Assembly: GCA_965645245.1 (NCBI GenBank)
Contig: OZ287068.1
Span: forward strand, 2,480,001-2,544,000
Length of the DNA stretch: 64,000 nucleotides
Origin: Massalongia carnosa
Taxonomy: Eukaryota
Reading direction: 5' to 3'
Both the position numbers and the translations under genes were made by a program. Numbering within the stretch: position 1 is the stretch's first letter; each line of letters starts with the position of its first letter. Of this stretch, positions 3,862-58,586 are shown one piece after another. The notes beneath the pieces were generated by a model that had not been told where the DNA came from, ran no database searches, and was given only the letters and a program-made list of their open reading frames with translations.

Positions 3862-4384
3862 TTAACTAATCTTATGTAAATAGTTGGATTTCCACCATGT
3901 TCTAAACCATCGCTTAGTAGAACCTTTATAATCAGCATTCTGACTTCGCTTCAGACCCTTGATCGCGTTGAATATCAGTTCATGCGTCGGTTGAACACCA
4001 TATGTAAGTAACGAGCGAATGAACTCATGTATTGCTTTGATCTGATGCTTCTCCAATATCTTATTATGTCCTCTCTTCTCGACTTCATTCGACGCGCTGT
4101 TTTGAGCAAGTGAACTTAGTAAAGTGGTACGAGGAATGTCAAATATGCGAGCAGCGCATATCTTGCTTTCAAGTGGATCTTCTATTAGAAACTGCTTAGC
4201 ATCATTCAGACGCGTAAAATTATTATTACAATTCATGACTATGATGATGCTAATGCTGATAATAATAATGATCAATAATTAAATAGTTGATGTAGTCAAA
4301 TGCGTCGTCTTGATGAAATGGAAATAAAATTGCGAAAAGACGAACTTTGCTTTCCGCCGAACTTTGCTTTCCCCGACTAGAGGC
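3862..4384 (-). mobile_element. pogo/Fot1-like (Tc1-mariner) family A, left end plus N-terminal HTH fragment of the transposase
   Basis: ATG at 4236 starts MNCNNNFTRLNDAK...AARIFDIPRTTL...GHNKIL...KRWFRTW (HTH plus CENP-B-like HTH). Nearly identical to 56695-57050. The terminal 43 bp (4342-4384) match 62169-62211 at 42/43. Confidence 0.85.
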
Positions 4385-4658: not shown

Positions 4659-6594
4659 ATGAGTTTCGGCTTTTCTATTGGCGACTTAGTTGCAGTCGGA
4701 AAGCTTGCATAGACTGTTAACAAGGCATGCAAAGACGCATCCGAGAGTTTCAAGAATTTTTCTCACGAAGTCTTGTCTCTGCATGCTGTGCTTATAGAGG
4801 TTGGAGAAATATTTTCCGATCAGACTTTGTCGGCATCTCAGCAGTCTCATCTGAAAACAATTGAAGATTCCTGTCGCGGTGTTCCTCAGGAAATGCAGCG
4901 CGTTCTCGAACATTATGAGAGTCCAGGCACATCGTCTCAGCGCACATGGGATCGAGTCAGATGGGATTCGGCGAACATTGTGGAGTTGAGAGCTCGTCTG
5001 GGTTCTAACATTCTGTTGTTAACAGCATTCATAAGGTTTTTGCTCTTGATCATCTTCATAGACGCATGAATATATATTAACTTGTGTTTGCTCACAGTAC
5101 TTCTCAAATCATGATGCAAAAGCAACTCAACAAGTTACTGCAAGATCATCGCAACGGAAAGCACGAAGGCTCGGTTGTTTCTGTTCAATCAGTGTAATCA
5201 CTTTCCACGAATGACAAATAGGCGTGGCGCGTTATTCGGAAAGAACTGGAAGATCTCGGGATAACTGTTGCAGCTATGAATGCTAATAAAGACTTTATCT
5301 TGGATTGGTTCAAGACCACCCAAAATGATGGAGTATTTGAGGAGCAATCACCAGAGGACGGCTTATGTGACATATTGTATGAGAGTAGCTTGAATAAGTT
5401 GTCGATAGTTACGGAGCATGATACTGTAAGTCAAAGTCAACCAATTTGTTTGATGGCTTTCGGTTGCAACGCGATGAAAAGTTTGTTTACTCTAATGTTG
5501 CAGAAGCCCACGCCTACTTCCGTAAGCCCTGTAGCTTTAAATTATCAACGAAAATATATCGCTCATGAGGGACTCTCTCCACGAACTCCTGGTTTGGTCA
5601 AGCGGCTGCTTCGTTATAACAAGGGACTAACTGATGCTGTTATAAGGGAGATATGATAAAAGTCCAGCGGCTGCTGGAGCAAGGGGCTGACCCTTCCGCG
5701 AGAACTTTTACTGGCGGTAAGGCGTTGTATTATGCGCTCTAGAACAGAAACGATACGATGGTACGATTGCTTTTGGAGAAAGGGGCTTTTATCGATGAAA
5801 GGTCATTGCGTAGGGCAGCTCGAAACAGAAACGAGTTGATGACGTGTTTACTGTTGGAGAAAGGTGCATATATCTATGCATTCGAGGATTCTTTCTATCA
5901 ACAATTATGTTTGGCGATCAGAAACCATAACGAAGCCATGCTGCAACTATTGTTCGAAAAAGGAGCAAATATCGATGCAGAGCATGAGCACAAAAACGCC
6001 GGTTTGATCTCAGAGGCCACAATTGGAAATGAGTGGGCTGTGCAAGAGATGCTGAAATGGGGAGCGGACACTGAGACGAGGAATGATCGCAAGAAAACAC
6101 CACTGATAGTTTCAGCTTCATGTGGACATGAGAAGGTGGTGCGGCTGTTGTTGAAAGCTGGCGTCAGCATTGAAGCAAGAGATGCTGATCAAGATACAGC
6201 GTTGATATGTGCGGCATACAACGGACACGAATCAACAGTGCGATTGCTGTTGGAACATGACGTCGATATTGAAGCAAGAGATGCTTATCAAAATACAGCG
6301 TTGTTATGGGCGGCATACAACGGACACGAATCAACAGTGCGATTGCTGTTGGAACATGACGTCGATATTGAAGCAAGAGATGCTGATCAAAACACAGCGT
6401 TGATATGTGCGGCAACAAAGGGACATAAATCAATAGTCCAGTTTTTGTTAAAAAACAAAGCCAACGTTCGAGCGAGAAATATAAATGGACACACTGCGAT
6501 GGAAAAGGCGAGAAAGAAAGGATTCTATAAAATTTCCGATTTGCTCGAGACAGCTGTCAAGCTAGATTCCAAGTCGCTTCAAAGAAAATCTTGA
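4659..6594 (+). pseudogene. Fungal STAND/NLR-type N-terminal helical (HeLo-like/SesA-like) domain plus ankyrin repeat protein, disabled
   Basis: MSFGFSIGDLVAVGKLA*TVNKACKDA...TWDRVRW, then EGSVVS...WRVIRKELEDLGI, then C-terminal ankyrins (5758-6594). In-frame stops at 4710, 5195, 5219, 5654 and 5740. Confidence 0.8.
6169..6414 (+). repeat. 2.5 near-identical 99-bp ankyrin-coding tandem repeats
   Basis: Units start at 6169, 6268 and 6367 with ATTGAAGCAAGAGATGCT, and differ at only a few positions. Confidence 0.95.
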
Positions 6595-22707: not shown

Positions 22708-24126
22708 GGACTAATGCGTCTTACACGGCATGGAGAGAAAGTACGTGTTACTGATTGTGAGGGTGATGGCATGATTTCAGATAACAGTAAGGGCTACCAT
22801 ATTGAATCATCAGTTTCAATACGATCCAAATGGTTATTACTTTACAATATTTCTTGTTAGAGCGCAACGTGTCCGGAGAAACAACACGAAGGATATTTAT
22901 AGGATGTCATTCAATAGGCTATGATAAGCTGCAAGATGAAGTCGAGCACAGAGTACATGAAACCTCTACCCTGTGTCTATGTACCAAAAACTACTCCTTT
23001 ACAGCCATTGACTATTCAGATCAACATACTATGGACCATTCATGATATACCTTAATACAATGTAATTGTCATAGTATTCGAGTTTTTATCGTAGGAAGTA
23101 GGAATCATGGCGATGACTCCCAGATTTGCAAGCCAGACCAAGTAGTTATCTGGAGGTGCGCTTGAGTTGGTCTTGTTTTGTTTTATGTTTACCTTTTGTG
23201 ATTTCGCTCGACCGATTAAAAGTTTCAGTTTCAACGAATTCCTGTCAGTCCGTAGTTTGAAAGTTTCCGAAGTGGGGTTTTACCATTCGATTTGACGACG
23301 ATCTTTTAGGTTGCTACGAACCGGAAGTACTCACTTTCTACTATGATGAGTTCTATTGGTTTCGTCGTTTTCGATATTCTGTCGGCGAGCTGATTGCGAT
23401 CAAACATAGAGCGTGGAATTGGTACAAGCTACAGCGTACGGAGTTCCCCATACAGTAGTTACCATGTCTTTTAATGGGGTTTCATCGCTTTGACTCTCGA
23501 GTTTTAACCAATTCGTAAATACGCCCTACTATAGCCTTTTTGCTGCCTTTTCCCCAATGCAGGGTTAAAATCCCCTCTAAAATAACCCAAGCAAGTGACG
23601 CTCGGTCAGGATAGACCTAGAGAGCATGAAGAAGTGATATAGGAGCAAATAGGACAAGCCTGGGATCTGCCAGCTGAAAACGTTTATTGTCAAGTGTGAA
23701 TTCGTCCAATTATCAATCTTAAGTACTCTGTACGGAGTACACCAAAGATTTGAATGCCGGTCGCATAATCACGTCAAAGTCTTCTCTGTATGCGCATTAT
23801 AAAGCACCGACGTCGATGACAGTGATAACATGCGATGACAATCAATTTTGTTTGACTTTCGCTAATCTTTTATACTCGTATTCGCCTCCATTTGCAACAC
23901 GGCTAAAGTTTACTACGGCAGAACGATTCAAATAGTATTGGAAGATTGGGAATACGACTCTTTTAGCGTGTTACAAATGGGGATGAATACGAGTACTTGT
24001 TTTCTTAACTGATTCCTTACGACGTTGAATAACTTTAATCTAATTGCTTTTTTATGAAATACACTGAACGACGTAACTCATTCGACGAGAAAGAACCTTT
24101 CGGCTGGACTTTTACACGAAGTGTCT

Positions 24127-25800
24127 ATGGCAACTCCCACCTCTTTCAACTCTCCCACCTCTTTCAACTCTCCCGCCTCTTTCAACTCTCCCACCTCTTT
24201 CAACTCTCCCGCCTCTTTCAACTCTCCCGCCTCTTTCAACTCTCCCACCTCTTTCAACTCTCCCACCTCTTTCAACTCTCCCACCTCTTTCAACTCTCCC
24301 ACCTCTTTCAACTCTCCCACCTCTTCAACGTCCTCCACTTTCTCCATCTTATCCACCTCTTCTTTCTCTTTTATCGAACCCGTCTAGAATAACTTTATCT
24401 CGGTTTACAAGAGCTGTGCTATTGATATGTACTATAAATCATCTCCTAAATAATAATAAATAAGACAGATTGGTAAAGGAAGCTTAAAGCAATTTTACTT
24501 ATTGTTATATATTGGTGAATCGTTTTACTACAATAAAGTTTGACGTTACCTTTCACATCTCTCTGAAGAAGTTGTCACTTATAAGTTCTTCAAGTCCTAG
24601 CAAGAATATCTGCAACACAATAGCCACTTCCAAGAAACGAATTGAGTTAAGTTTGAATGGGTCGACGAGAGTATTATAGCTCATATACCCGTCAAATTTA
24701 TGGAGAAAGATGAAGTAATGCGTAAAAATTTCGAGGAATGGTAGTGTATGGAAGAGACAGGTCTTTCATCTGTAGTTTATTTGAAACTCTTAGTTTATCA
24801 TTAGCTAAGTCTTCTTTTCAAGCAATAGTTGCCGGCCGGGTCGCTGAATCCGCAGGATGTGTTTGACATCTTTCATCTATATTATCAAGAGGACATAACC
24901 AGAGTACGAATTCGGGGAGAAAGAGATGTTTGCCGTTCCTTCGGAATTAGTTAAGTGGGAAACTGGGCCTCAAATCGATCTTTATATTGATGCAGTTACA
25001 ATACTTAGAAACCAGCTTCGTGAAACATTGAAGTGTTTCTGGGAAAACGTGTACCCCGAACGAAGCACTTACCCGATTTTTTATAAACCTTGTTATCTTT
25101 AACTATATTTTAGAGAAGAGACTGTTAATTCAAACAGCTAAAACAGAGGCATCTTTTATCCCCTCCTCTTCAACTTCGCCATCGCCTATCAAGATCAATT
25201 TCTCGACTGTCAATCCCCCTTTCTTAGAAAAACTTTTCTTAAAACTAAGCTTAATCAGGTCACTACGTTAAAAGGGAAAACTCATATATTATGCGGTATT
25301 GTCGACTACTCGCTTGAATATAGGCATGATGGCACCGAATCTAGAAATCTTGTTGTTGTTAAAGCGAAGATGAGATTCCAAATGTACAAAGCATATGGGC
25401 ACTTACTCTCCTACATGGGTTTGTGATGATCAAAATATTTAATTTTTATACTTCTATATAAGGGTAGGCATGATCCACAGGTCCGGAAAACCGAGGGAAA
25501 AGACAATACAACTATTTCTCGAGTTGCGACAGATGGCTTTCATTGCCATTTTTGAAGGATTGATAACAGCAAAGCCAATGAACTTTATATTTATCACTCT
25601 TACTTGAACAAGCTGAAAGAAAGCATAAATTTCATCAAGAAGCGTTTACGATTAGTCAAGAAATTCCCACACGCTGCACATTTCTACAAATTTTCGAGTT
25701 ATTATTCATGCAGCCATTTTGTTAAGCACTACCACATCATCCGTGAAAGGGCAGGATTCTATGGCGAGCTTTCAGGATGTTGATCATCTGAAACTTTGAT
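24127..25800 (+). pseudogene. Decayed gene with a PD-(D/E)XK/restriction-endonuclease-like C-terminal domain
   Basis: Remnants near 25290-25570 read LCGIVDYSLEY...NLVVVKAK...YGHLLSYMG / MIHR...ATDGFHCHF*RIDNS, resembling the fungal 'VVEAK...GQLLAYM...ATDG..F.F.RI' family. Many stops and frameshifts; boundaries approximate. Confidence 0.5.
24131..24326 (+). repeat. 18-bp minisatellite, ~11 units (CAACTCTCCC[A/G]CCTCTTT)
   Basis: Directly visible. Essentially one variable position; encodes (SFNSPT/A)n after ATG 24127. Confidence 0.97.
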
Positions 25801-34250: not shown

Positions 34251-36556
34251 TTTGATTGTGGTATATGAGCCAGTGTTGCGAGCGTAGAGAAGTGCTGAAG
34301 TGGTCTAAGTTTGGAGTCCTTAGAATGGTCAGAAGCTGGGGACGAGCGGGTATATAATGAGACATTATCAAGTCTCTTCACATGCAAAGGCATGAAGCCT
34401 TAAGGGCAATGTAAGGTGAACACATGTAAAAGCTGGGATGGAAGGATAAAACGCCTTCAAATCAACACTCTGTGGCTTTGACGTATGACGCACCGACCGG
34501 TTGTGGCGGTAGCAGAGAGCTTTTAGGTGTTTTGATCATGTCTTAATTGGCTTAGATCCTAAGCTTCTAGAGCTAGAACGTTATGGGGTTTGGTGCTAAC
34601 CCCTTCTTACTCAATTCCATCGGAACCGAATGGTCTCATACATAGCTTCTGGATTGTGGTTTCCAGTCTATCTTCTATCTTCCTATTGAGAACTGTTTTC
34701 TTCTGCTCACAAATGCTCGTTTTTTTATTACTGTATGGTTACATCTGCAGGGCAGAGCCAGATTACGGTACTCCATACCTCACTTTGTACTACTTAGTAA
34801 TGTTACGCAAACCTCCCTCAAGGTAATTAGCCAATAATTGAAGCAGTATTCAGCACGATTTGCTATTAGAAATGGAACAATAATCCTGCATTAGGCAACC
34901 ACTGCAGCGCAAAACATTCTCACGGAGGCCGAAGAAGACAATCTTCTCAGCTTTTCCGTTGCAACAAGCCCGCTTCGTGAGACCTTTTCAGAGTACTCAG
35001 TATTGGCTAAGTACTCATGGAATCTGTATATACATTTCGTGATGCCGCTCCCCGGCCGTCAGGTTCACAATTTCAACGTCAAACCCAATAAACACCCATA
35101 CGCTGCCACGGATAATGCAGTTAGTACAACGACGACATTGCCACTCGTTCTGAATCTCTTCTGGCTCAGCCCGTCCTCTCCAATCTCAGAAAAAAACTGT
35201 TTATTTCCTTGCTGCCTTCGAAGTAGACTGGTAAGGAGGATTCCAGTACCGTAAAGGGCAAACAGGGCCCCAATGCTATAGAACTCGGAGGTGAAGATTT
35301 TCAGGATTACCTAATAACAACATGCGTATTAATAGACTGAATTCTTAACTTCCTTTCCCTTTGTTTTTCGCATCGCTCGTGAATGAGTGAACCCTCATGA
35401 CAAGGCGACCAATCTGTACTTCAGTGGGTGGAATTTACCAGAGCAAAAGAGAACTGTCCAAGAGCTGTTCGAATGTAGGCACCTTCGAAGGTCCTTTGTG
35501 CAGCTCGGATCTCGACCAGCTCGTTAGTGGTTAGTATCACTGACCGAGCTCTATGGTCGCGAAGGTGATATCTGTCCTGAGGGTGGGGCTACGTAAGGTG
35601 AGCAAAGTCTTTCGCGAACGATGAGATTGGTGGATGAAGATATTAGTACCTCAAACATGACATGTAACGATATATGGAGCTTTTCTACGATTCCAATACT
35701 GGCAAATGAGACAACCTATAGACCACGTCTATACAAATCTTGGTACAGATTGGAGACATTGAAAAAAAGTCAAAATAAACCCCACTAAGGGACCGAAGCG
35801 AAGGATCATGCAAGGTAGGGTACGTAGGGCCGGAAAATAGTTCTCGCGTGCAAATGCCAAAAACATTCTTGAAACCAATTTACGAAGTTTAACGAAGAAT
35901 GGAGATCTCTAATGCGAGAAAGCCGTTAGAAAACTAGAAAGCATTATGATCCCTATTCTCTCGTTTTCTAAAAGTCCCCAAACGCTAAGATTTTATAAAG
36001 GCAAATAAAGCTGAGTGATGAACCTTACATGGACTTGAGAATGATTTAGGGGACCTAGTACGAGCCTCCCGGACGGGGGGCATTAGATTCTGCTATATGT
36101 TAATAGCTCTGAAAAGAACGCCATGGAGTACGATAACATACACCTTCTCGGCATTCTAGAGGGGAACCTGCTTCTAGAGGTTAAGCGGCAATGTTGACTC
36201 GAAAACTTTAGCTAGAGTAGTTATAATCGAAGTCTTGAAGATAGACACAAACCTTGAGAGTTCGCATGTTTCGGATACGATGAAAAGGGTACAAGAGAAA
36301 AATTTCCGACTAATTAACCAGTCCATTATGGGTAGCAATTGTAAGTGAATGCAGCTGATGTATTTCATTAGAGTAAGTCTATTTTTCGGCATCAGGGCGG
36401 TTAGGATAGGACTTCTTGCTTTATTGGGCTCAGCTGACAAAGCATTTTTAATAAGATGAGATGGTTCTATGTCACGTGAGGCCCCTGAGTCAAAGTAAAT
36501 TAAGAATCACCCTCTGAAAATTCTTTCCTCATCCACTTCTTCTCACTCGGCCTCAT

Positions 36557-36695
36557 CCATCTCACTGACTCGTCGTCGACCCCACGTTGTCTCGGTGCCC
36601 CTACCTCGCTGTCAGTGCTTGCTGCTTTTCCCATCTCACTGACTCGTCGTCGACCTCACGTTGTCCTCGGTGCCCCTACCTCGCTGTCGGTGCTT
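36557..36695 (+). repeat. Two ~65-bp direct repeats (period 74) in the element's 5' leader
   Basis: CCATCTCACTGACTCGTCGTCGACC...CTCGGTGCCCCTACCTCGCTGTC(A/G)GTGCTT at 36557-36620 and 36631-36695; 3 differences. Confidence 0.95.
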
Positions 36696-36702
36696 TTTCC
36701 CA

Positions 36703-37716
36703 ATGACGAACACCCGTTCCCAAAGCACCCCGATGGACGACATAGTCCCCGACTCCCAGGAGATTGTCGGATTGACGCAGGCCCAGTCCAATCAAATCTT
36801 CGCCCTACAAAAGAAGAAAGCCGAGGCAGAAGCGAAGGCGGCCGAGGCTGAGGCCAGAATTGCCGAGTCCAAGGCATTGGTCGCCGAGAAGGAGGTGGAA
36901 AAAATGCAGCTAGAAATCGACTGCATGCGCCGAGAATCTGACGCCCGAATAGCGGCCGTCATTCCTGCTGGCAAGCCGAGTCGTGTCGTCGGCGATGACG
37001 ACGAGGACCTAGGTGAGATCCCTCTCGAAGTAAGAAGTATAGCACCCCGTTTCGCGGGCCTACCACAGGACGAGATCATCAAGATCTTTTCAAATAAATT
37101 CAAAGCCATCAACCTCTCCCGCCTCCGACACATGCACGGCATGCAATACGAGTCCTACAAGGATCAGGACCGCATCGGCATCGAAGACGGCGCCTTGAGG
37201 TTGAGAAAGGCATCCGGGACCTACAAAGATTTCGGAAAGACAGTTCATGACGTCTGGACCGAGAGCTTCATCAACTACACCTCGATCATGGTCAGTCTTT
37301 TCGGGAAATCGAGTCAACAGCTTCACGCCACCATGTCGGCATTCCACGGAAAAATCCTCACGCTGGCCAAGGTGTACGAGTGGCAGGAAGCAGTCCTCCC
37401 CCTCGCCATCGAAACCCACACTCACATCATCGCGTCTCAGCCATCCGACGCATCCCAATGGAAAATGCCCGACGAATTCCAAGCTCGATTCTGCACCCCC
37501 CTCACAGTCCTACGCCGTCGCCGCTCACGATCCCCGCCGTCCCGGCGACCGACCCCGAGAGGAGACAGGGCCGATAGGGCCGAGAAGGCAGCGGGGGAAA
37601 TCTGCGACAAGTACAACAGCGGCACCTGCACCTGGCCGTCGTGCTACCGACAGCACAAATGTAAATCGTGCGGCGCGGCTGGGCATGGCCAGAAGACATG
37701 CCCAACGAAGAAATAG
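36703..37716 (+). CDS. gag: ORF1/Gag-like protein of the YR retrotransposon
   Basis: First ATG at 36703. N-terminal coiled coil (KAEAEAKAAEAEARIAE), Arg/Ser tract, and CDKYNSGTCTWPSCYRQH + CKSCGAAGHGQKTC zinc fingers. Confidence 0.9.
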   Translation: MTNTRSQSTPMDDIVPDSQEIVGLTQAQSNQIFALQKKKAEAEAKAAEAEARIAESKALVAEKEVEKMQLEIDCMRRESDARIAAVIPAGKPSRVVGDDDEDLGEIPLEVRSIAPRFAGLPQDEIIKIFSNKFKAINLSRLRHMHGMQYESYKDQDRIGIEDGALRLRKASGTYKDFGKTVHDVWTESFINYTSIMVSLFGKSSQQLHATMSAFHGKILTLAKVYEWQEAVLPLAIETHTHIIASQPSDASQWKMPDEFQARFCTPLTVLRRRRSRSPPSRRPTPRGDRADRAEKAAGEICDKYNSGTCTWPSCYRQHKCKSCGAAGHGQKTCPTKK

Positions 37717-37761
37717 GGGGTTGGTGCAGGAGGCAGTAGAATAGCTTCAATAGCTGAATTC

Positions 37762-39465
37762 ATGACGTCCCATCCCTGCTTACCTGCACCAATCAGACCA
37801 AATACAATCCCTTCGTTTCAACTCGTAGACGCATCTCGTCAGCGTTTGAAAGACAGCCCATCTCCCCTCGTACCGTCCGCATGGGCAACTCTACTTCAAG
37901 AGTATCCGGGCCCCCTCCGAGTCCATCTGCCCATGATCCTTCGTTTCGGAGTACAAATCGGATACGAAGGCCCCACAGACATCCTTCGGATCGAAAAAAA
38001 TCTGACATCAGCGAATGAGGACCCGGAAACGATCGAGAATAAGCTCCAAGAGGACCTCAGGAAGGGCCGAGTCAGACGAATAGCCGCCCCGAGTCAGCCA
38101 TTTGTGGCCTCCCCCCTCGGCTTGGTCCCGAAACATGACGGAGGATGGCGACGCATTCATCATCTGTCTCATCCCAATCAAACATCAGTCAACGACAACA
38201 TTCCAGAAGAGGCATCCAAATTACAATACGCCAGACTCGACGACATTATTCAATTGATTCTGTCAGCGGGCAAAGGTGCTGTCATAGTGAAAAGAGACGT
38301 CAAAGACGCCTTTCGAAACGTTCCCGTCGCACCTCATCATCAATGGCTTCTGGGTTTCGGATGGAATGACGAATTCTACACCGAGACATGCCTTTCGTTC
38401 GGACTGTCGACGGCCCCGTTCATCTTCAATCTTTTTGCGGAAGGCTTTCATTGGATTTTGGAATCCTTTCTACAATGGAGATTACATCACTATCTAGACG
38501 ACTTCGTTGCAATTTTCCCATCCGAGACATCGTCAGAACGATTGCACCAAGAAACAAAAGCCTACAACATTCTCACCGACATTCTTGGCATCCCGAGAAA
38601 CGACTCAAAAGACGCCGAGGGAACGACAGCGACAGTCTTCGGACTCGAGGTCGACACCATCAACAGTCTTATTCGTCTGCCAGCGGACAAGCTGGAAAAA
38701 GCGAGAATCATCACTACAAAGGCACTAAACGAGACGACAATCAGCCTCGGCGACATGCAGTCAATAGCGGGCTTCCTAAGCTTCTGCGCACAGGCAGTCA
38801 AATTGGGCCGAGTCTTCTTACGATTATTCTGGAATTTTATAGCCTCATTTCCCTCGGGCAGTCATCGTCGGGTCAAAAGAAGAATTCCCACATGGGTCAG
38901 ACAGGATCTCATCTGGTGGAACAAACTTCTAGTGGACTTCAACGGTATTGTCTTCTTCGAGACGTCAACACGAGACACGATCAAGGTGCATACGGATGCA
39001 TGCCTCACGGGTCTCGGAGGCTATTTTCAACAAGACAACGAGCTCGTGAATCAAAAAAACGCATGTAGGGCCCGAGTCCTAGTCCTCAATCAGGAAGGAT
39101 CACCGAGCATAAACGTCCGAGAAGTCGAAGCTATCCTTCTAATCCTTCAGAAATGGGCGCCGACATGGCGACATCGACAGATCCTTGTCTTTACCGACAG
39201 CAACACAGCATACACAGGATTCACGAATCTAACCCTCAAGGGACCGGCCAACGCGCCTCTACGAGAAATACTGTCCATAGCTGCAAAGTGGGACATCGTA
39301 CTACGTTGTCAATGGATCAGTGGCACTTCCAATGGACTAGCAGATGCCCTGTCACGTTTTGATGATGAAAGATTGGCTAACTTTTGCCCTCATTGGCAGA
39401 ACCCATACAATTCGATGAACCTCCCTCCACCTACCTATCCTCCACACCAGGGTCAGCCCTGGTAA
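37762..39465 (+). CDS. pol: Reverse transcriptase-RNase H
   Basis: SPLGLVPK, WRRIHHLS, KRDVKDAFR, LSFGLSTAP and YLDDF. RNase H: TDAC, INVREVEA, FTDS, NGLADALSR. Confidence 0.96.
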   Translation: MTSHPCLPAPIRPNTIPSFQLVDASRQRLKDSPSPLVPSAWATLLQEYPGPLRVHLPMILRFGVQIGYEGPTDILRIEKNLTSANEDPETIENKLQEDLRKGRVRRIAAPSQPFVASPLGLVPKHDGGWRRIHHLSHPNQTSVNDNIPEEASKLQYARLDDIIQLILSAGKGAVIVKRDVKDAFRNVPVAPHHQWLLGFGWNDEFYTETCLSFGLSTAPFIFNLFAEGFHWILESFLQWRLHHYLDDFVAIFPSETSSERLHQETKAYNILTDILGIPRNDSKDAEGTTATVFGLEVDTINSLIRLPADKLEKARIITTKALNETTISLGDMQSIAGFLSFCAQAVKLGRVFLRLFWNFIASFPSGSHRRVKRRIPTWVRQDLIWWNKLLVDFNGIVFFETSTRDTIKVHTDACLTGLGGYFQQDNELVNQKNACRARVLVLNQEGSPSINVREVEAILLILQKWAPTWRHRQILVFTDSNTAYTGFTNLTLKGPANAPLREILSIAAKWDIVLRCQWISGTSNGLADALSRFDDERLANFCPHWQNPYNSMNLPPPTYPPHQGQPW

Positions 39466-40547
39466 AACGTCTCGTCTGGCACGGACACTCGGCGGACACG
39501 AGAAAAGGGTACGGGACGGCGATCGACTCATACGAGGCATTCTGCGCGACGACGGGACGCACGTCGTGGCCTGCAACAACCGAGTCCCTCGAGGAATGGC
39601 TAGCCGGTCGACTATACGGGGGCGGCACACCCAAGCAGGGAAAGATAAAACCAGAGACGGCAGCGAGCTACCTCGCCGGCCTCAGATCATACCATGTAGA
39701 CCGAGGATACGGCCTCACCCCATTCGAGGGGCCGAGACTTCAATTGATGCTGAAAGGGGGAAAAAGGATCTTTTCTCAGACAAAAAGAAGACGCCTACCC
39801 ATTTCAAAAGAATTACTGACAAAAATCACCAGTATTCCCGCTCATTCGGCCGAAGACCTCAACATCGACGCGACATTCAAAGTTGCATGGGCAGGGTTCC
39901 TCAGACTCGGGGAAATCACCTACACTGTCGCTGATCGTAAGAAGACATCTTTTCAGAGATTGAAACCTACACGAGGTGACATCTCATTCGCCGAGAACGA
40001 TCAATACGCGACATTACGTCTCAAAAGAAGCAAAACAGACACAAATCACTCAGGAGTTCAGATAGTGCTGGCAGCGACCAATGAGAGCACTTGCCCCGTG
40101 ACAGCACTACGGCGTCTTTTCAGAAATGATCCTCAGCCATCTACATCCCCGCTTTTTCGTCTCGGCACCGCATTCACCAGAGCCTCCGTCATAGCATCCC
40201 TGAAAAAGAGACTGATAGCCGTCGGCATCAACGACTCGGCATACTCGGGACACAGCTTCAGAAAAGGAGCAGCACAACACGCCGCCGACCACGGGATGCT
40301 GGATGAGAGTATTCAGAGACTCGGAAGATGGTCATCAAACGCGTTTCAGCTATACTTTCAGACGTCCCAGGCCTCACTATTCAATTTGAACCTCAGTTTT
40401 CAAAAAGGCATCCCTCTAGCAGTCCCACGTGCTGTCGTCGCCGAGACGAATCCTACAAACTCCTACCCCTACTCAATTGGGCATTCCATTGGGCGTACAG
40501 GTCAACCAGGGCATCGATCCGGAGCGCCGCCGGGCACCTCCATCTAG
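39384..40547 (+). CDS. Tyrosine recombinase (true start unknown; no early ATG)
   Basis: SAM-like N-terminal part (TRKGY...SYLAGLRSYH) and the catalytic set FLRLGE (R), KRSKTD (K), GHSFRKG (HxxR), LGRWSS (W) and QLY (Y). Confidence 0.95.
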   Translation: MPSLAEPIQFDEPPSTYLSSTPGSALVKRLVWHGHSADTRKGYGTAIDSYEAFCATTGRTSWPATTESLEEWLAGRLYGGGTPKQGKIKPETAASYLAGLRSYHVDRGYGLTPFEGPRLQLMLKGGKRIFSQTKRRRLPISKELLTKITSIPAHSAEDLNIDATFKVAWAGFLRLGEITYTVADRKKTSFQRLKPTRGDISFAENDQYATLRLKRSKTDTNHSGVQIVLAATNESTCPVTALRRLFRNDPQPSTSPLFRLGTAFTRASVIASLKKRLIAVGINDSAYSGHSFRKGAAQHAADHGMLDESIQRLGRWSSNAFQLYFQTSQASLFNLNLSFQKGIPLAVPRAVVAETNPTNSYPYSIGHSIGRTGQPGHRSGAPPGTSI

Positions 40548-40820
40548 ATCATCGCCGTCGGGCACTGCCGTCGGGCATCATCTATCGGATCGTTGAGCGT
40601 CAGCAGACGCCTCGGGCCTAGAAGATGAGGTTCTCACCTCAGCACCGACCCCGAGTCACGTGCCTAGGCCTGCCCGGGCTGACCTGTGTCGTTCCCATGC
40701 CCAATCAAATTCAAGCATTCAAATCAATTCATCCAATTAAAAGCCCCCCCAGCGCAAGCGAAGGTAACGGCACCGATAAGGGTCATAGAATTGTCTCAGT
40801 ACCTCAGACATGCCCAGCTA

Positions 40821-40953
40821 AGCCCCTTCGGGTTAGCCTTACAGAACGTTAAGCCCCTTCGGGTTAACAGACTGACTACGCAGCACATCTGTAGCAACCA
40901 CGTTAGTCAGCTGGGACGCTAATCCGAAGGAAATTGGCTAACCCGGAGGGGCT
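40821..40953. mobile_element. 133-bp MITE-like element with TA flanks
   Basis: TA|AGCCCCTTCGGGTTAGCC ... GGCTAACCCGGAGGGGCT|TA (17/18 TIR match). A second, inner copy of the motif sits at each end. Confidence 0.65.
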
Positions 40954-41142
40954 TAGACGGCTTCTAGAGCCCACGCACGTCTTAGGCAACGCAAGAAAGG
41001 TCTTTGCCGGTGGCAGATTTGTATGTCAGAAATTGCATCAGAAAAGGCAACTGGTGAGATGGAAATGGAGGCTTCTAGAATGACTGGTGAACAGGCATAA
41101 ATAGGAGCAGTTTTACTTTAATACGTAGTGGTAGAAAAGTCA

Positions 41143-42765
41143 CGAGATGCTTAGGGCCAGTCCCTGTGTAAATCTTTGCTAGTAAACAGCCATTTCCACT
41201 GCTCATCCATTTCCACTGCTCATCCGTAATGCAACTGCCAACAGCACATTAAACTATTTTCGGTTTAAATCGTATGACCTGTTATTGCTACTTACGTTGT
41301 ATAATTATCCTACTCGGTCTGATAAAGCATACCCTCACCCACACTTACCATTTGCCCTTGCCCTTGTCCTAACCCTTTGCCCTCTCTAAATCTCTCCTTC
41401 CACTTATGCTATAACTCATATTATATATTTTACTACTCGTCATCTCGATGGAGTTCGATCCTACTTCTTTGGATGCACGAAAGCAACATGTCATTGCCCT
41501 TCTATCCTCATCTCACCTCCTTCCTCCGCAAGAAAATGAGTTATTTTCGTCTTGAAAGAAGGCAAAGACTCATCTTCAAGACTATGCCTTCACTCAAGGC
41601 TTCGCGTTGGTCACAGAAACTCACGATAAGAAAAACCATTTAATCGTATTAGACTACACACGCCATCACAAAAGAGTTAGAAACACTAGAAAAGTAGAGG
41701 AGGAAGACCGGGTGCGAGCCAATACCAAAGTTTCGTTCAATGAGTGCCCTTATCGCCTCCGTCTCAAAAAAAAAACAAAGACAATGCATGGAGACTAATA
41801 GTTACTAACTCCGAGCACAACCATGAGATGGCCACTGATCCCTTTGCATTCAGAGAACATCATAGTAGGGACCCTGATCGAACAGATGCCCTAGATCAAG
41901 GAAAGAGTCTCCGTGCATCGTCAACCCAATATGGCCAAGCAGCGAGAATATTAGGAATCCAAGGACTCCGTCTGTCGAGGAGCGATTATTACAATCTCGC
42001 TCATTCGGAGGGAGCTCACACGCCTGACGAAGAGCTTCTTTTTGCCTTGGGCTCGTTGAAAGACAGGGACTTTCATGTACGGTGTAAGGAAAAATATATT
42101 GTTAAGAATAATGTGCGCGTGAGAGACGGGTGATAGAACACTTTTTTTTTTTGCAATGCGGAGCAAATTAGGCTGGCTCGACGTTTCGTGGGTGGGTTTC
42201 TATTAGAACGGATGCAACGTTCAATACTAATATATTGAACTTGCCTTTATCCGTTTTGGTTGGAATCACTCACACCGACCTTTCGTTTCCCGTCGCTTAT
42301 TGCTATATAACTTAACCCTATCTCAGGCAGCGCCGCCTCCATCTCTTTATAGTCTTAGCCAAAACGTGCGCGCCAGTCAAATTCTCCCTACTTCCTCTGC
42401 AACAACGCGAAGGTCTCGGGGTGTGGCGAAGAAATCAAAGGCTCAGTTGGAGTTGGGATCTCAGCAAAGAGTGAGAGATCAGTCAAACAGGCTAGGGCTC
42501 AAGCGAGAAAGGAAACGGCGATGAGAAAGATGGCTAAAACCATGAAGCCTAGAAAAGATGATGTATCGCAATTGTGTGACGAGTTTTTGGAGTTGAAGTC
42601 ATCGCAATCGGTAGATTTGTAGGCATTGAATACACTTAGTCAATAACAGCAACATTATTAATACGTAGTGTAACTGCTAGCTTGTACGCACCCTGGATGA
42701 GTAGTAAAATGGCTGTTTACTAGTAAAGATTTACACCAGGGGGAGGACTGTCCCTAAGCATCTCG
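41143..42765 (+). mobile_element. Mutator-like element (MULE), internally deleted/degenerate
   Basis: ~70-bp TIRs starting CGAGATGCTTAGGG. Perfect 9-bp TSD GAAAAGTCA (41134-41142, 42766-42774). Frameshifted FAR1-like CPYRL...HNH and MULE-domain DATFNTNILNLPLSVLVGIT remnants. Confidence 0.93.
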
Positions 42766-56609: not shown

Positions 56610-56694
56610 CATCATCATCATCATTAGCATCATCATCATCATCATCATCATTATAATCATCATTAGCATCATCATCATCATCATCATCATCATC
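56610..56694 (+). repeat. Imperfect (ATC)n microsatellite
   Basis: ~28 triplets with ATT/AGC/ATA interruptions. Confidence 0.95.
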
Positions 56695-58586
56695 AATTGT
56701 AATGATACTGTCACGCGTCTGAATGATGCTAAGCAGTCTCTAATAGAAAATCCACTTGAAAGCAAGATATGCGCTGCTCGCATATTTGACATTCCTCGTA
56801 CCACTTTACAAAGTTCACTTGCTCAAAATAGCGCGTCGAATGAAGTCGAGAAGAGAGGAGGACATAATAAGATATTGGAGAAGCATCGGATCAAAGCGAT
56901 ACATGAGTTCATTCGCTCGTTACTTATGGTGTTCAACCGACACATGAACTGATATTCAACGCGATCAAGAGTCTGAAGCGAAGGCAGAATGCTGATTATA
57001 AAGGTCCTACTAAGTGATGGTTTAGAACATGGAACCATTTACATAAGATTAAGACTAAACCGCTAGCAGTCGTTCGCTATACGGCGTAAAGGAGTATTAT
57101 TCTATTAGTCCTGAGAATAGAAAATCTATCACCATTTTCGAGAATATAAACGCCGCCAGTGATTATCCGCCACCTCCTTTACTTGTCATATAAGGTCATG
57201 ATATGATGAGCAATTGGTTTGCAGACGAACTGCCTAAAGGAACTCGAATTGTTTCGTCAGAAAATGGATTCACATCGGATAAAATAGCGATTGCATATCT
57301 GCAACATTACATTGAAAATTCTGATCCAGGATCTGAGAGTGATTGGAAGTTGATGCTCATGGATAATCACGGTAGTCATGTTACTCCTGAATTCATCAAG
57401 CTTGCCAATGAAAACTGGATTCGTCCTTATCCTTTGATACCACACTTGACGCATTGTATGCAACCGCTTGATGTAGGAGTGTTTCAACCTTATAACATTG
57501 GCATGATGTGGCCATTCAAGATGCGATTGCGGAGTTCAATGTAGAGTATACAATAACTCGATTTTGTCAAGATCTCACCAAAATACGAGATAACACATTC
57601 AAGGAATCCACTATTCAATCTGCCTTTGAAAAATCTGGAATGTGGCCTATTAATGAGGAGAAATGCACTGAACAGCTAAAGAAGTTTGTACCTTCGCAAA
57701 GTGAGAATAATTCTTCTTCTTTTTTAACATCATCTCTCCCAACATTGCCACGAATTCAACCTAAAACGTTTGATGATGTTGAAAGAGGATTACCTGAATG
57801 GCTACCCAAAATTCGCGACAATACACAATGGAGTGATCCAGTCCGGGAACAGGAGTTAGAGGAATTCGTGATTAATACGAAGGAAGTTGTTGCCAAATCG
57901 ACGCTTACGAAATTCGAATTATCACTTCATCATGAGCGAAGAAGCAATGAATTACTACAGAGAGCAACTTCTCGCAAGCGATTAAGACCTAATTACTCGA
58001 CAGACGGAGGATTAGGACTCACGAAGGAGGATGCGCAACGAGCAATTGTTGAAAGACAGCAAAAAGATGAGTAGATAGAAAAGAAACGAGAGCACAACAA
58101 CTTCATGAGAATATGGCGAATGAAAAGAGATAGTGTACAGTGTTATCACTCGAAAGAATGAAAAGATCAGAATAAAACATGTCAAAGACCTCGCAAAACA
58201 GGGAGTTAGCATATCCGATGAAATGTTGACTCCCATTGATGATCCTGAGGCCATTTGGAAGGCGAGCGACATTACTTGGCAGACGGAAGAGACCAAAAAA
58301 TAGACGAAGAAAGGAGTAAAAGATACTCATATATTCAATGATGAAGAGGAAGAGACAGAGACTATCTTTATCATGGATACTGTAGGTGATCAAAATCTAC
58401 GATTTATAGGTGAGGGTGATTCTATTCGTCTACAAAAGAACTTCGTTGCCTTTGAAATGGAAGAGGAAGACGCTGTCGACGACAGCGACGAGGATGATGT
58501 TCAGGAGCAGTTGGGTTATTATTGGTATAACTACTATTATAACATTTTTGATGCTTGATCTTTGTACAAAAAAATCCCCATCGTTA

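Follow-up and report, generated by a model that had tools for sequence, protein, structure and literature searches.

Readthrough of a stop codon between gag and pol is textbook knowledge for the gammaretroviruses and is known or proposed for some long terminal repeat (LTR) retrotransposons. In murine leukemia virus, the UAG that ends gag is followed by an 8-nt spacer and then by a pseudoknot; a spacer of about 8 nt between stop and structure is usual in the known readthrough signals. How the ratio of Gag to Pol is set in retrotransposons with a gene for a tyrosine recombinase (YR) is essentially undescribed. The subject of this study is a 64,000-nucleotide stretch of Massalongia carnosa DNA (contig OZ287068.1, positions 2,480,001 to 2,544,000; hereafter the window) and, within it, a single copy of a Ngaro-like YR retrotransposon (36454..40773, forward strand; all features of the element given below are on that strand). 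Its gag gene and its pol gene, which encodes reverse transcriptase (RT) and RNase H (RH), lie in one frame and are separated by a single UAG. An initial annotation of the window had proposed that this stop is read through and had drawn attention to a stem immediately 3′ of it. In our computational comparison with related elements, the proposal that programmed readthrough yields a Gag-RT-RH fusion in this copy was well supported; a stimulatory role of the stem is an even question.

The junction resembles that of the gammaretroviruses in having a single in-frame UAG between gag and pol, followed by a G and a purine-rich start, and in having a stable RNA structure directly 3′ of the stop; likewise, a fixed minority of translation events would yield a Gag-Pol fusion. 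It differs in that the element is a fungus-type YR retrotransposon without protease or integrase, in that a long hairpin 2 nt past the stop takes the place of a pseudoknot after an 8-nt spacer, and in the lack of sequence similarity and of an Rfam match.

Three types of readthrough signal are distinguished in the available text of PMC4615788: type I, UAG-CAAUYA; type II, UGA followed by CGG or CUA; and type III, UAG-G with a downstream pseudoknot. That text also gives two adenines 5′ of the stop as stimulating readthrough in yeast (PMC4615788). The exact type I and type II contexts (tobamovirus UAG-CAA-UYA; UGA-CGG and UGA-CUA) occur at the gag stops of many relatives of the window element, although these are retrotransposons and not RNA viruses or cellular genes. 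The window copy itself reads UAG-GGG, which is neither type; it falls in the type III group because AAA UAG GGG is followed by a stem. A further likeness is to Tca2 (pCal) of Candida albicans, a Ty1/copia element in which gag and pol lie in one frame and are separated by one stop, with a purine-rich stretch and a predicted structure, as described in the accessible portions of two sources (PMC2194720; PMC7175516). Unlike the window element, Tca2 has LTRs, a protease, and an integrase, and it uses UGA as the stop.

In gene order (gag, RT/RNase H, tyrosine recombinase), and in that no protease or DDE integrase was found, the element is like Ngaro and DIRS1. The lack of a methyltransferase domain agrees with Ngaro rather than DIRS1, following the available text of two sources (PMC3783388, PMC3266345), and a YR open reading frame (ORF) that is frameshifted relative to pol is one of the two Ngaro arrangements described in the first of these (PMC3783388), which in its accessible part also records one truncated Ngaro in Neosartorya fischeri. 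The split direct repeats in the order A-pol-B-A-B that define Ngaro were not found in the window copy. The statement in the initial annotation that YR elements are usually described with overlapping ORFs fits DIRS1; Ngaro elements usually lack ORF overlaps according to the part of PMC3266345 available.

In full-text literature searches, readthrough was nowhere mentioned for YR retrotransposons; they included the available parts of a fungal DIRS/Ngaro survey, a DIRS1 overview, a VIPER/TATE study, a Cafeteria Ngaro paper, and further sources (PMC3783388, PMC3266345, PMC6681497, PMC8547959, PMC12440569, PMC7175516), with the founding Ngaro paper (doi 10.1093/molbev/msh072), a 2005 DIRS review, and supplements falling outside their coverage. 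We claim no priority, because that founding work, the review, and the supplements were outside the coverage. A conserved leaky stop would be the same solution as that of the gammaretroviruses and some LTR elements, in a lineage without protease and integrase. The finding is of interest because each of the three signal classes occurs in the family at the same homologous position; a single recoding site would be available in dozens of natural forms, with three stop codons and three signal types, and hence as a comparative set for what makes stops leaky in fungi. For annotation, gene callers split such elements at the stop or invent introns, and a programmed stop would separate intact or active copies from dead ones.

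The stop codon between gag and pol

The gag gene (36704..37716) begins at the first ATG (36704) of an ORF that is open from 36661 (36661..37716), and it ends with AAG AAA TAG at 37708–37716. Beyond the TAG (37714–37716) the same frame continues with GGG GTT GGT GCA GGA GGC AGT AGA ATA GCT TCA ATA GCT GAA TTC, and then reaches an ATG at 37762. This in-frame linker of 15 codons (37717..37761; G-V-G-A-G-G-S-R-I-A-S-I-A-E-F) contains neither a stop nor a start codon. Read as an extension of gag, the pol frame would span 37717..39465; from its ATG, the RT/RNase H ORF spans 37762..39465 and encodes 567 aa. The observation in the initial annotation that the frame of the gag TAG stays open for 15 codons into the RT ORF was confirmed by the sequence. 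The proposed leaky stop and its context, AAG AAA UAG GGG (37708..37719), have A at −2 and −1 and G at +4.

By our own estimate, the chance probability that two genes share a frame and are joined by 15 open codons is about 1/3 × 0.5, roughly 1 in 6. Because the shared frame could be chance, the window sequence by itself cannot carry the readthrough interpretation, and the relatives must decide. Removal of the stop by splicing was also considered. The sole nearby upstream GT found by eye (GTAAAT, 37661), if spliced to the AG within the TAG, would excise 56 nt and disrupt the frame, and this reading was rejected.

A single in-frame stop in related elements

Searched against proteins, the RT ORF matched 358 homologs at E ≤ 0.001, some of which are named reverse transcriptase or RNase H by their source. 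Among the matches listed, which were the best 120 of the 358, most were ORFs of 550–590 aa on contigs of 3–5 kb, and the named ones were from Talaromyces, Penicillium, and Aspergillus. We aligned 28 homologs with the window, linker included, and a scan of metagenome contigs with this alignment yielded 499 related stretches, from which we retained 79 loci. For each locus the RT N-terminus was located by tblastn and the gag C-terminus by a profile made from the window gag and 35 relatives. This profile fits the last 200 residues of gag, the match of the window being partly by construction; BLASTP of the window gag against the gag parts of two homologous proteins, P0096 and P0103, confirmed the homology. 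A locus was taken as informative when its gag C-terminus and its RT N-terminus were both present, as was the case in 61 of the 79; the other 18 were without one end.

Gag and RT were in the same frame and separated by exactly one stop in 46 of the 61 informative loci. Three loci (L017, L062, and L066) had a shared frame with more than one stop, and 12 had gag and RT in different frames. The initial annotation had named a sense codon at the junction, or a frame relationship that varies among relatives, as evidence that would argue against readthrough. No locus had a sense codon there (0/61); L007 looks fused at first, but its junction is actually AAG AAA TAG CAG CTA. The frame relationship does vary in the 12 loci, most of which look decayed (see below).

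When 62 sequences were clustered at 70% RT identity, 27 of the 33 clusters had a single-stop member. A quick maximum-likelihood RT tree was made from 56 of the 62 rows, six rows with an RT match shorter than 380 residues being left out, and the single-stop state was present in both of its deep clades. The gag ORF had at least 250 codons, the pol ORF had at least 500 codons, and the junction stop was the sole stop between them in 26 of 47 sequences, the window included. Judged from these contigs, the comparative pattern is far beyond chance, and the in-frame single stop noted in the window is conserved among its relatives.

Sequence contexts of the stops

The base following the stop (+4) was C in 34 of the 46 single-stop loci, G in 11, A in 1, and T in none; the background frequency of C at first codon positions of pol was 0.288. 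Adenines at both −2 and −1 were found in 26 of the 46 (background 0.062). The codon after the stop was CAA in 18 and CAG in 2, a count for which the background was not computed. UAG CAA UUA was present exactly in L010 and L036, UGA CGG in L006 and L049, and UGA CUA in L025 and L052. Counted by cluster, in our own reading, the 26 single-stop clusters other than that of the window comprised 9 or 10 with a CAR codon, about 8 with another C, and 8 with a G. The flanks of these putative leaky stops match the published contexts of types I, II, and III and the AA effect.

Signs of selection on the stop and on the codons that follow

All three stop codons were used in the 46 loci (TAG in 22, TGA in 19, and TAA in 5), and strongly supported sisters in the quick tree carried different ones. 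Such sisters were L002 (TAA) and L003 (TAG); L005 (TGA) and L010 (TAG); L028 (TAG) and L021 (TGA); L030 (TAG) and L037 plus L041 (TGA); and L007 plus L009 (TAG) and L011, L012, plus L014 (TGA).

The stretch following the stop was compared pairwise within eight groups of related loci. The ratio of the nonsynonymous to the synonymous proportion of differences (pN/pS) was 0.24–0.93 in 38 of 39 comparisons; the remaining one was a near-identical pair with no synonymous change. Constraint in this stretch is relaxed, with some pairs near 0.8–0.9. The indels in it were all multiples of three, one of them of 15 codons, and linkers reached about 138 codons among the relatives. By its pattern of substitutions and indels, the DNA that follows the stop evolves like a coding region.

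Protein similarity extends upstream of the ATG at 37762: S-I-A-E-F-M of the window aligns with S-L-Q-K-F-I, L-L-T-Q-F-L, and similar segments, and the position of the window Met is I or L in relatives. Because the relatives align through it with I or L, this ATG is not a conserved start. It has T at −3, which is a poor initiation context by consensus. In 26 of the 42 loci in which the conserved R-P-N-T motif of RT could be found, no in-frame ATG lay between the stop and this motif; the first ATG was 30–400 codons later or absent. Since no ATG precedes the conserved RT start in those 26 loci, pol cannot start on its own in them.

Proposed mechanism

The conserved stop, the exchanges among stop codons, the coding character of the linker, and the leaky contexts support the suggestion of the initial annotation that a Gag-RT-RH fusion would be made by UAG readthrough. 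In the mechanism that we propose, the full-length RNA would be translated from the gag AUG at 36704, and most ribosomes would terminate at the UAG (37714–37716), releasing Gag. A minority would decode the UAG with a near-cognate tRNA, keep the same frame, and cross the 15-codon linker into RT/RNase H to produce the fusion, and readthrough would in this way set the Gag:Pol ratio, as it does in the gammaretroviruses. Leakiness would come from the context, AAA before the UAG and G after it, and would probably be helped by the 18-bp stem that starts 2 nt downstream. With the UAG in the ribosomal A site, roughly the lower half of the stem would be opened, and the upper ~10 bp would stand at the mRNA entrance.

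The stem downstream of the stop

The predicted fold consists of a 5′ arm (37719..37736) in the poorly conserved linker, a 39-nt loop (37737..37775) that contains two small hairpins and the ATG at 37762–37764, and a 3′ arm (37776..37794) formed by the codons of the conserved C-L-P-A-P-I, directly 5′ of R-P-N-T. Its 18 bp join 37719–37730 with 37794–37783, including a perfect 10-bp core, and 37731–37736 with 37781–37776; A37782 is bulged, and the G-U pairs are 37720–37793 and 37732–37780. In a 300-nt context this stem is the minimum-free-energy structure, with pair probabilities of 0.63–1.0 and about 1.0 in the core. Folding therefore bore out the stem of ~18 bp described in the initial annotation, with its 10-bp core, two G-U pairs, one bulge, and enclosed pol AUG. 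The 106-nt fold had a free energy of −34.5 kcal/mol, compared with −21.9 ± 3.0 kcal/mol for 200 dinucleotide shuffles (z = −4.15), none of which folded as well. The 80 nt after the stop were more stable than all 150 of the 80-nt windows tried from the RT ORF of the element itself. The stem is beyond chance.

Among the relatives, loci with a G after the stop folded better in the post-stop region than those with a C; the median percentile within their own RT was 0.29 for stop-G loci and 0.52 for stop-C loci (one-sided Mann-Whitney test, p = 0.011, n = 12 and 34, with L011 and L012 being duplicates). In L011, L012, and L014, an 8-bp G-rich arm located 9 nt past the TGA pairs with the same conserved P-A-P codons that form the 3′ arm in the window. 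Their sisters L007, L009, and L050 have TAG-CAR-CUA; L007 and L009 are without such a stem, and the percentile of L050 was 0.16.

The type III signal as a whole is present in part. A UAG followed by G is found (AAA UAG GGG at 37711–37719), and in place of the ~8-nt spacer and pseudoknot there is a stem 2 nt past the stop. Pairing of the loop with downstream sequence reached −21.5 kcal/mol, a value matched by 1 of 300 mononucleotide shuffles. A pseudoknot made by this duplex was rejected as a candidate, since 6 of 38 other RT segments equaled or exceeded it, and no pseudoknot is supported. A search of Rfam gave no match at E ≤ 1 over 36400–41200.

We consider it an even question whether the stem, as predicted, stimulates readthrough. 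Several observations weigh against such a role. The related loci L037 and L041 fold differently, the stem not being kept in place; the stop-G loci L040, L011, L012, and L015 are unremarkable by percentile; the spacer between stop and stem is 2 nt and not about 8; and the window, unlike many relatives, has an ATG (37762) before the conserved RT start. A covariation test had no relative near enough to draw on, the best loci having 52–53% RT identity; a scan of genome contigs with the window protein and a scan of viral contigs with the alignment each gave no relative, and the closest protein, P0003 (58% identity), is known as a protein only. Contigs of three other runs (X1, X8, and X9) have the TAG and both stem arms unchanged, but because they differ so little from the window anywhere, these unchanged arms have no power for covariation; the contig of run X10 leaves the junction uncovered.

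Exceptions and alternative explanations

Other observations weigh against readthrough itself, or against its being general in the family. The nominal p-values of the context enrichment, 3e-10 and 6e-20, overstate it because related loci were treated as independent; the locus counts are likewise not phylogenetically independent, and the cluster count of 27/33 is the fairer figure. Gag and RT are in different frames in 12 of the 61 loci. Most of these 12 have a near-identical sister with a single stop (L073 with L074, L044 with L027) and therefore look decayed; L064 pairs with the multi-stop L066, in a cluster that also holds single-stop members. A clade of five rows (L017, L018, L019, L031, and L033) is never single-stop, so the single-stop strategy is not universal in the family, and further other-frame exceptions are the pairs L043/L048 and L068/L069, and L075. 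The five-row clade and these two pairs may use something other than readthrough. In two proteins from different sources, P0096 and P0103, gag and RT form a continuous ORF in which W takes the place of the stop (K-K-R-S-W-Q-S in P0096 and G-Q-K-S-W-R-L in P0103); each is a truncated or decayed copy. When proteins spanning the junction were sought directly, in a search of limited sensitivity, P0096 was the only one found. For Tca2, the in-frame UGA and the predicted pseudoknot were insufficient for readthrough in Saccharomyces cerevisiae, and weak promoter activity resided in the junction, as reported in the accessible portions of PMC2194720 and PMC7175516. The Tca2 case is a real caution against taking such an anatomy for the mechanism.

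Three explanations other than stem-assisted readthrough were weighed. The continuous ORFs of P0096 and P0103 would fit a plain nonsense mutation in a dead copy of a fused gag-pol ancestor, because TGG differs from TAG by one G-to-A change. We regard this explanation as very improbable: a stop is present in 46 of the 61 informative loci and a sense codon in none, all three stop codons are used, and the two fused proteins are truncated or degenerate copies. Apart from its stop, the window copy is intact, its 567-aa ORF is found in identical form on eight contigs, and its TAG is unchanged in the contigs of the three other runs. Production of Pol independently of Gag is improbable as well, although to a lesser degree. 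Pol could start at the AUG at 37762 from a subgenomic or internal-promoter transcript, an internal ribosome entry site, or termination and reinitiation, or it could arise by a non-canonical bypass as proposed for Tca2, and the shared frame would then be incidental. The ATG 15 codons past the stop in the window, an ATG before R-P-N-T in 16 of 42 relatives, and the promoter activity of the Tca2 junction, which gave no readthrough in S. cerevisiae (PMC2194720; PMC7175516, as far as available), are in keeping with this explanation. It requires neither a shared frame nor an open linker, yet the frame is shared in 49 of 61 loci and a single stop is present in 46; an ATG ahead of the conserved RT start is missing in 26 of 42 relatives; homology continues upstream of the ATG at 37762, where relatives have I or L in place of the Met; and the flanks of the stop are published leaky contexts. 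The ATG itself has T at −3 and is located inside a stable hairpin.

A more serious alternative accepts the readthrough and denies the stem its stimulatory role; we hold it to be a real possibility, though clearly below an even chance. The leakiness would then come from AAA-UAG-G alone, and the stem would have another role, such as masking the AUG at 37762, RNA packaging or dimerization, or protection from decay, or would be a by-product. Most relatives manage by sequence context alone, the stop-C loci showing no enrichment of folding at a median percentile of 0.52, and among related stop-G loci such as L037 and L041 the stems vary in place and form. The lack of support for a pseudoknot (6 of 38 segments match or beat it), the lack of an Rfam match, and the spacer of 2 nt, where known signals have ~8, point the same way. 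On the other side, the stem surpasses in stability every other 80-nt fold of the element's RT region, has a z of −4.15, and is located exactly at the recoding site, the stop-G group folds better than the stop-C group (p = 0.011), and L011, L012, and L014 share the design of an arm paired to the P-A-P codons, which their CAR sisters L007 and L009 are without. Programmed readthrough in this copy is the explanation that we prefer.

Access to the recombinase ORF

The YR ORF (39384..40547, 387 aa) is in the −1 frame relative to pol and overlaps it by 82 nt. Its first 120 codons or so contain no Met, and tblastn similarity to relatives begins with its first residues. A match to it was found by tblastn downstream of RT in 63 of 80 sequences, and YR was in the same relative frame (−1 with respect to pol) in 32 of the 35 related loci with a downstream YR match. 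To reach YR, the RNA seems to need a further recoding event or a different route. No canonical slippery heptamer was seen by eye in the 82-nt overlap (39384–39465).

A broader proposal, which we put forward tentatively and rate a little below an even chance, is that the whole abundant soil-fungal YR family makes Pol only as a Gag-Pol readthrough fusion. The family would have swapped repeatedly among all three signal classes (stop-CAA-UYA; UGA-CGG or UGA-CUA; and stop-G with a hairpin whose 3′ arm comes from the P-A-P codons of pol), and another recoding event may be required on this RNA to reach the recombinase. If true, this would make the family a natural evolutionary series for the gain and exchange of leaky-stop signals.

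Structure and distribution of the element

The 5′ end of the element was placed at about 36454–36457, where contigs of runs X1, X8, and X9 start to match the window; the X8 contig is unlike the window upstream of 36457. The 3′ end is beyond 40700, and record 7 of run X1 extends about 73 nt past that position. The 5′ leader contains a tandem duplication with a unit of ~75 nt (36557..36695, consisting of 36557–36620 and 36631–36695; the copies are 95% identical). The duplication adjoins the gag ATG on its 5′ side, and the contig of run X9 is without 1 + 17 nt at 36665/36681, in the second unit.

In its translation, gag has a C-terminal zinc knuckle, CX2CX4HX4C (C-K-S-C-G-A-A-G-H-G-Q-K-T-C; 37660..37701), and the gag ORFs of relatives likewise end in Cys/His motifs; no Pfam family matched gag. 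Within pol, Pfam matches were found to RVT_1 (~38125–38559, E 2.1e-12) and to RT_RNaseH (~38974–39210, E 1.6e-4, 22.3 bits, under the 24.8-bit cutoff). The YR ORF had a weak match to Phage_integrase (E 0.0054, 17 bits, below the curated cutoff of 27.1 bits). The Pfam scan of the four ORFs reported no protease or DDE integrase family, and neither the pol ORF nor the YR ORF matched a Dam-like methyltransferase family at E ≤ 0.01. Because pol ends 82 nt inside the YR ORF, there is no room for a further domain. When the 5′ region was compared with the region after YR by blastn, short-word searches included, the only matches were 7–12 nt long, which leaves the absence of split direct repeats (A1-internal-B1 A2 B2) unproven as long as the 3′ end is not fixed. 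The label Ngaro-like rests on gene content and order, since these repeats were not found.

As measured, the window copy has a gag ORF of 357 codons and a pol ORF of 582 codons and is otherwise intact. The product of the 567-aa ORF belongs to a cluster of 59 members, in which an identical 567-aa member occurs on 8 contigs. We conclude that this Ngaro-like tyrosine-recombinase retrotransposon is intact and has been active recently. Near-identical copies were found in runs X1–X10 under at least eight organism labels, with 23–93% of sampled words shared, and the 5′ flank differs from that of the window in one of these runs. Either the labels stand for close relatives or the element has spread recently.

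Further observations

In the five-row clade, RT of L018, L019, L031, and L033 is in the −1 frame relative to gag, with an overlap of 196 nt in L018 and 10 nt in L031, and L017 has a shared gag/RT frame with three stops. Frameshifting may replace readthrough in this clade; L031 showed no evident slippery site. A Trp at the junction, as in P0096 and P0103, is the outcome expected of a UGA-to-UGG change. In two gene models, P0100 and P0102 (Talaromyces and Penicillium), a gag-like N-terminus is joined to RT, and the zinc knuckle and the stop are skipped, which looks like a predicted intron placed over a programmed stop. On the contigs of L022, L030, L051, L076, L077, and L079, a second unit adjoins the first (YR upstream of gag, or gag after YR), and those of L076 and L077 are both 4434 nt long. 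They look like tandem or circularly permuted assemblies, as might be expected if the elements went through circles or stood in arrays.

Elsewhere in the window, a 30-nt inverted pair (41166–41195 and 42707–42736, 1.5 kb apart) is located directly downstream of the element. Inverted repeats of 69–204 nt at 3895–4272 and 56656–57032 are about 52 kb apart. Three 99-nt tandem units are present within a coding-looking stretch at 6139–6435, and an array with 9/18-nt periodicity occupies 24080–24394.

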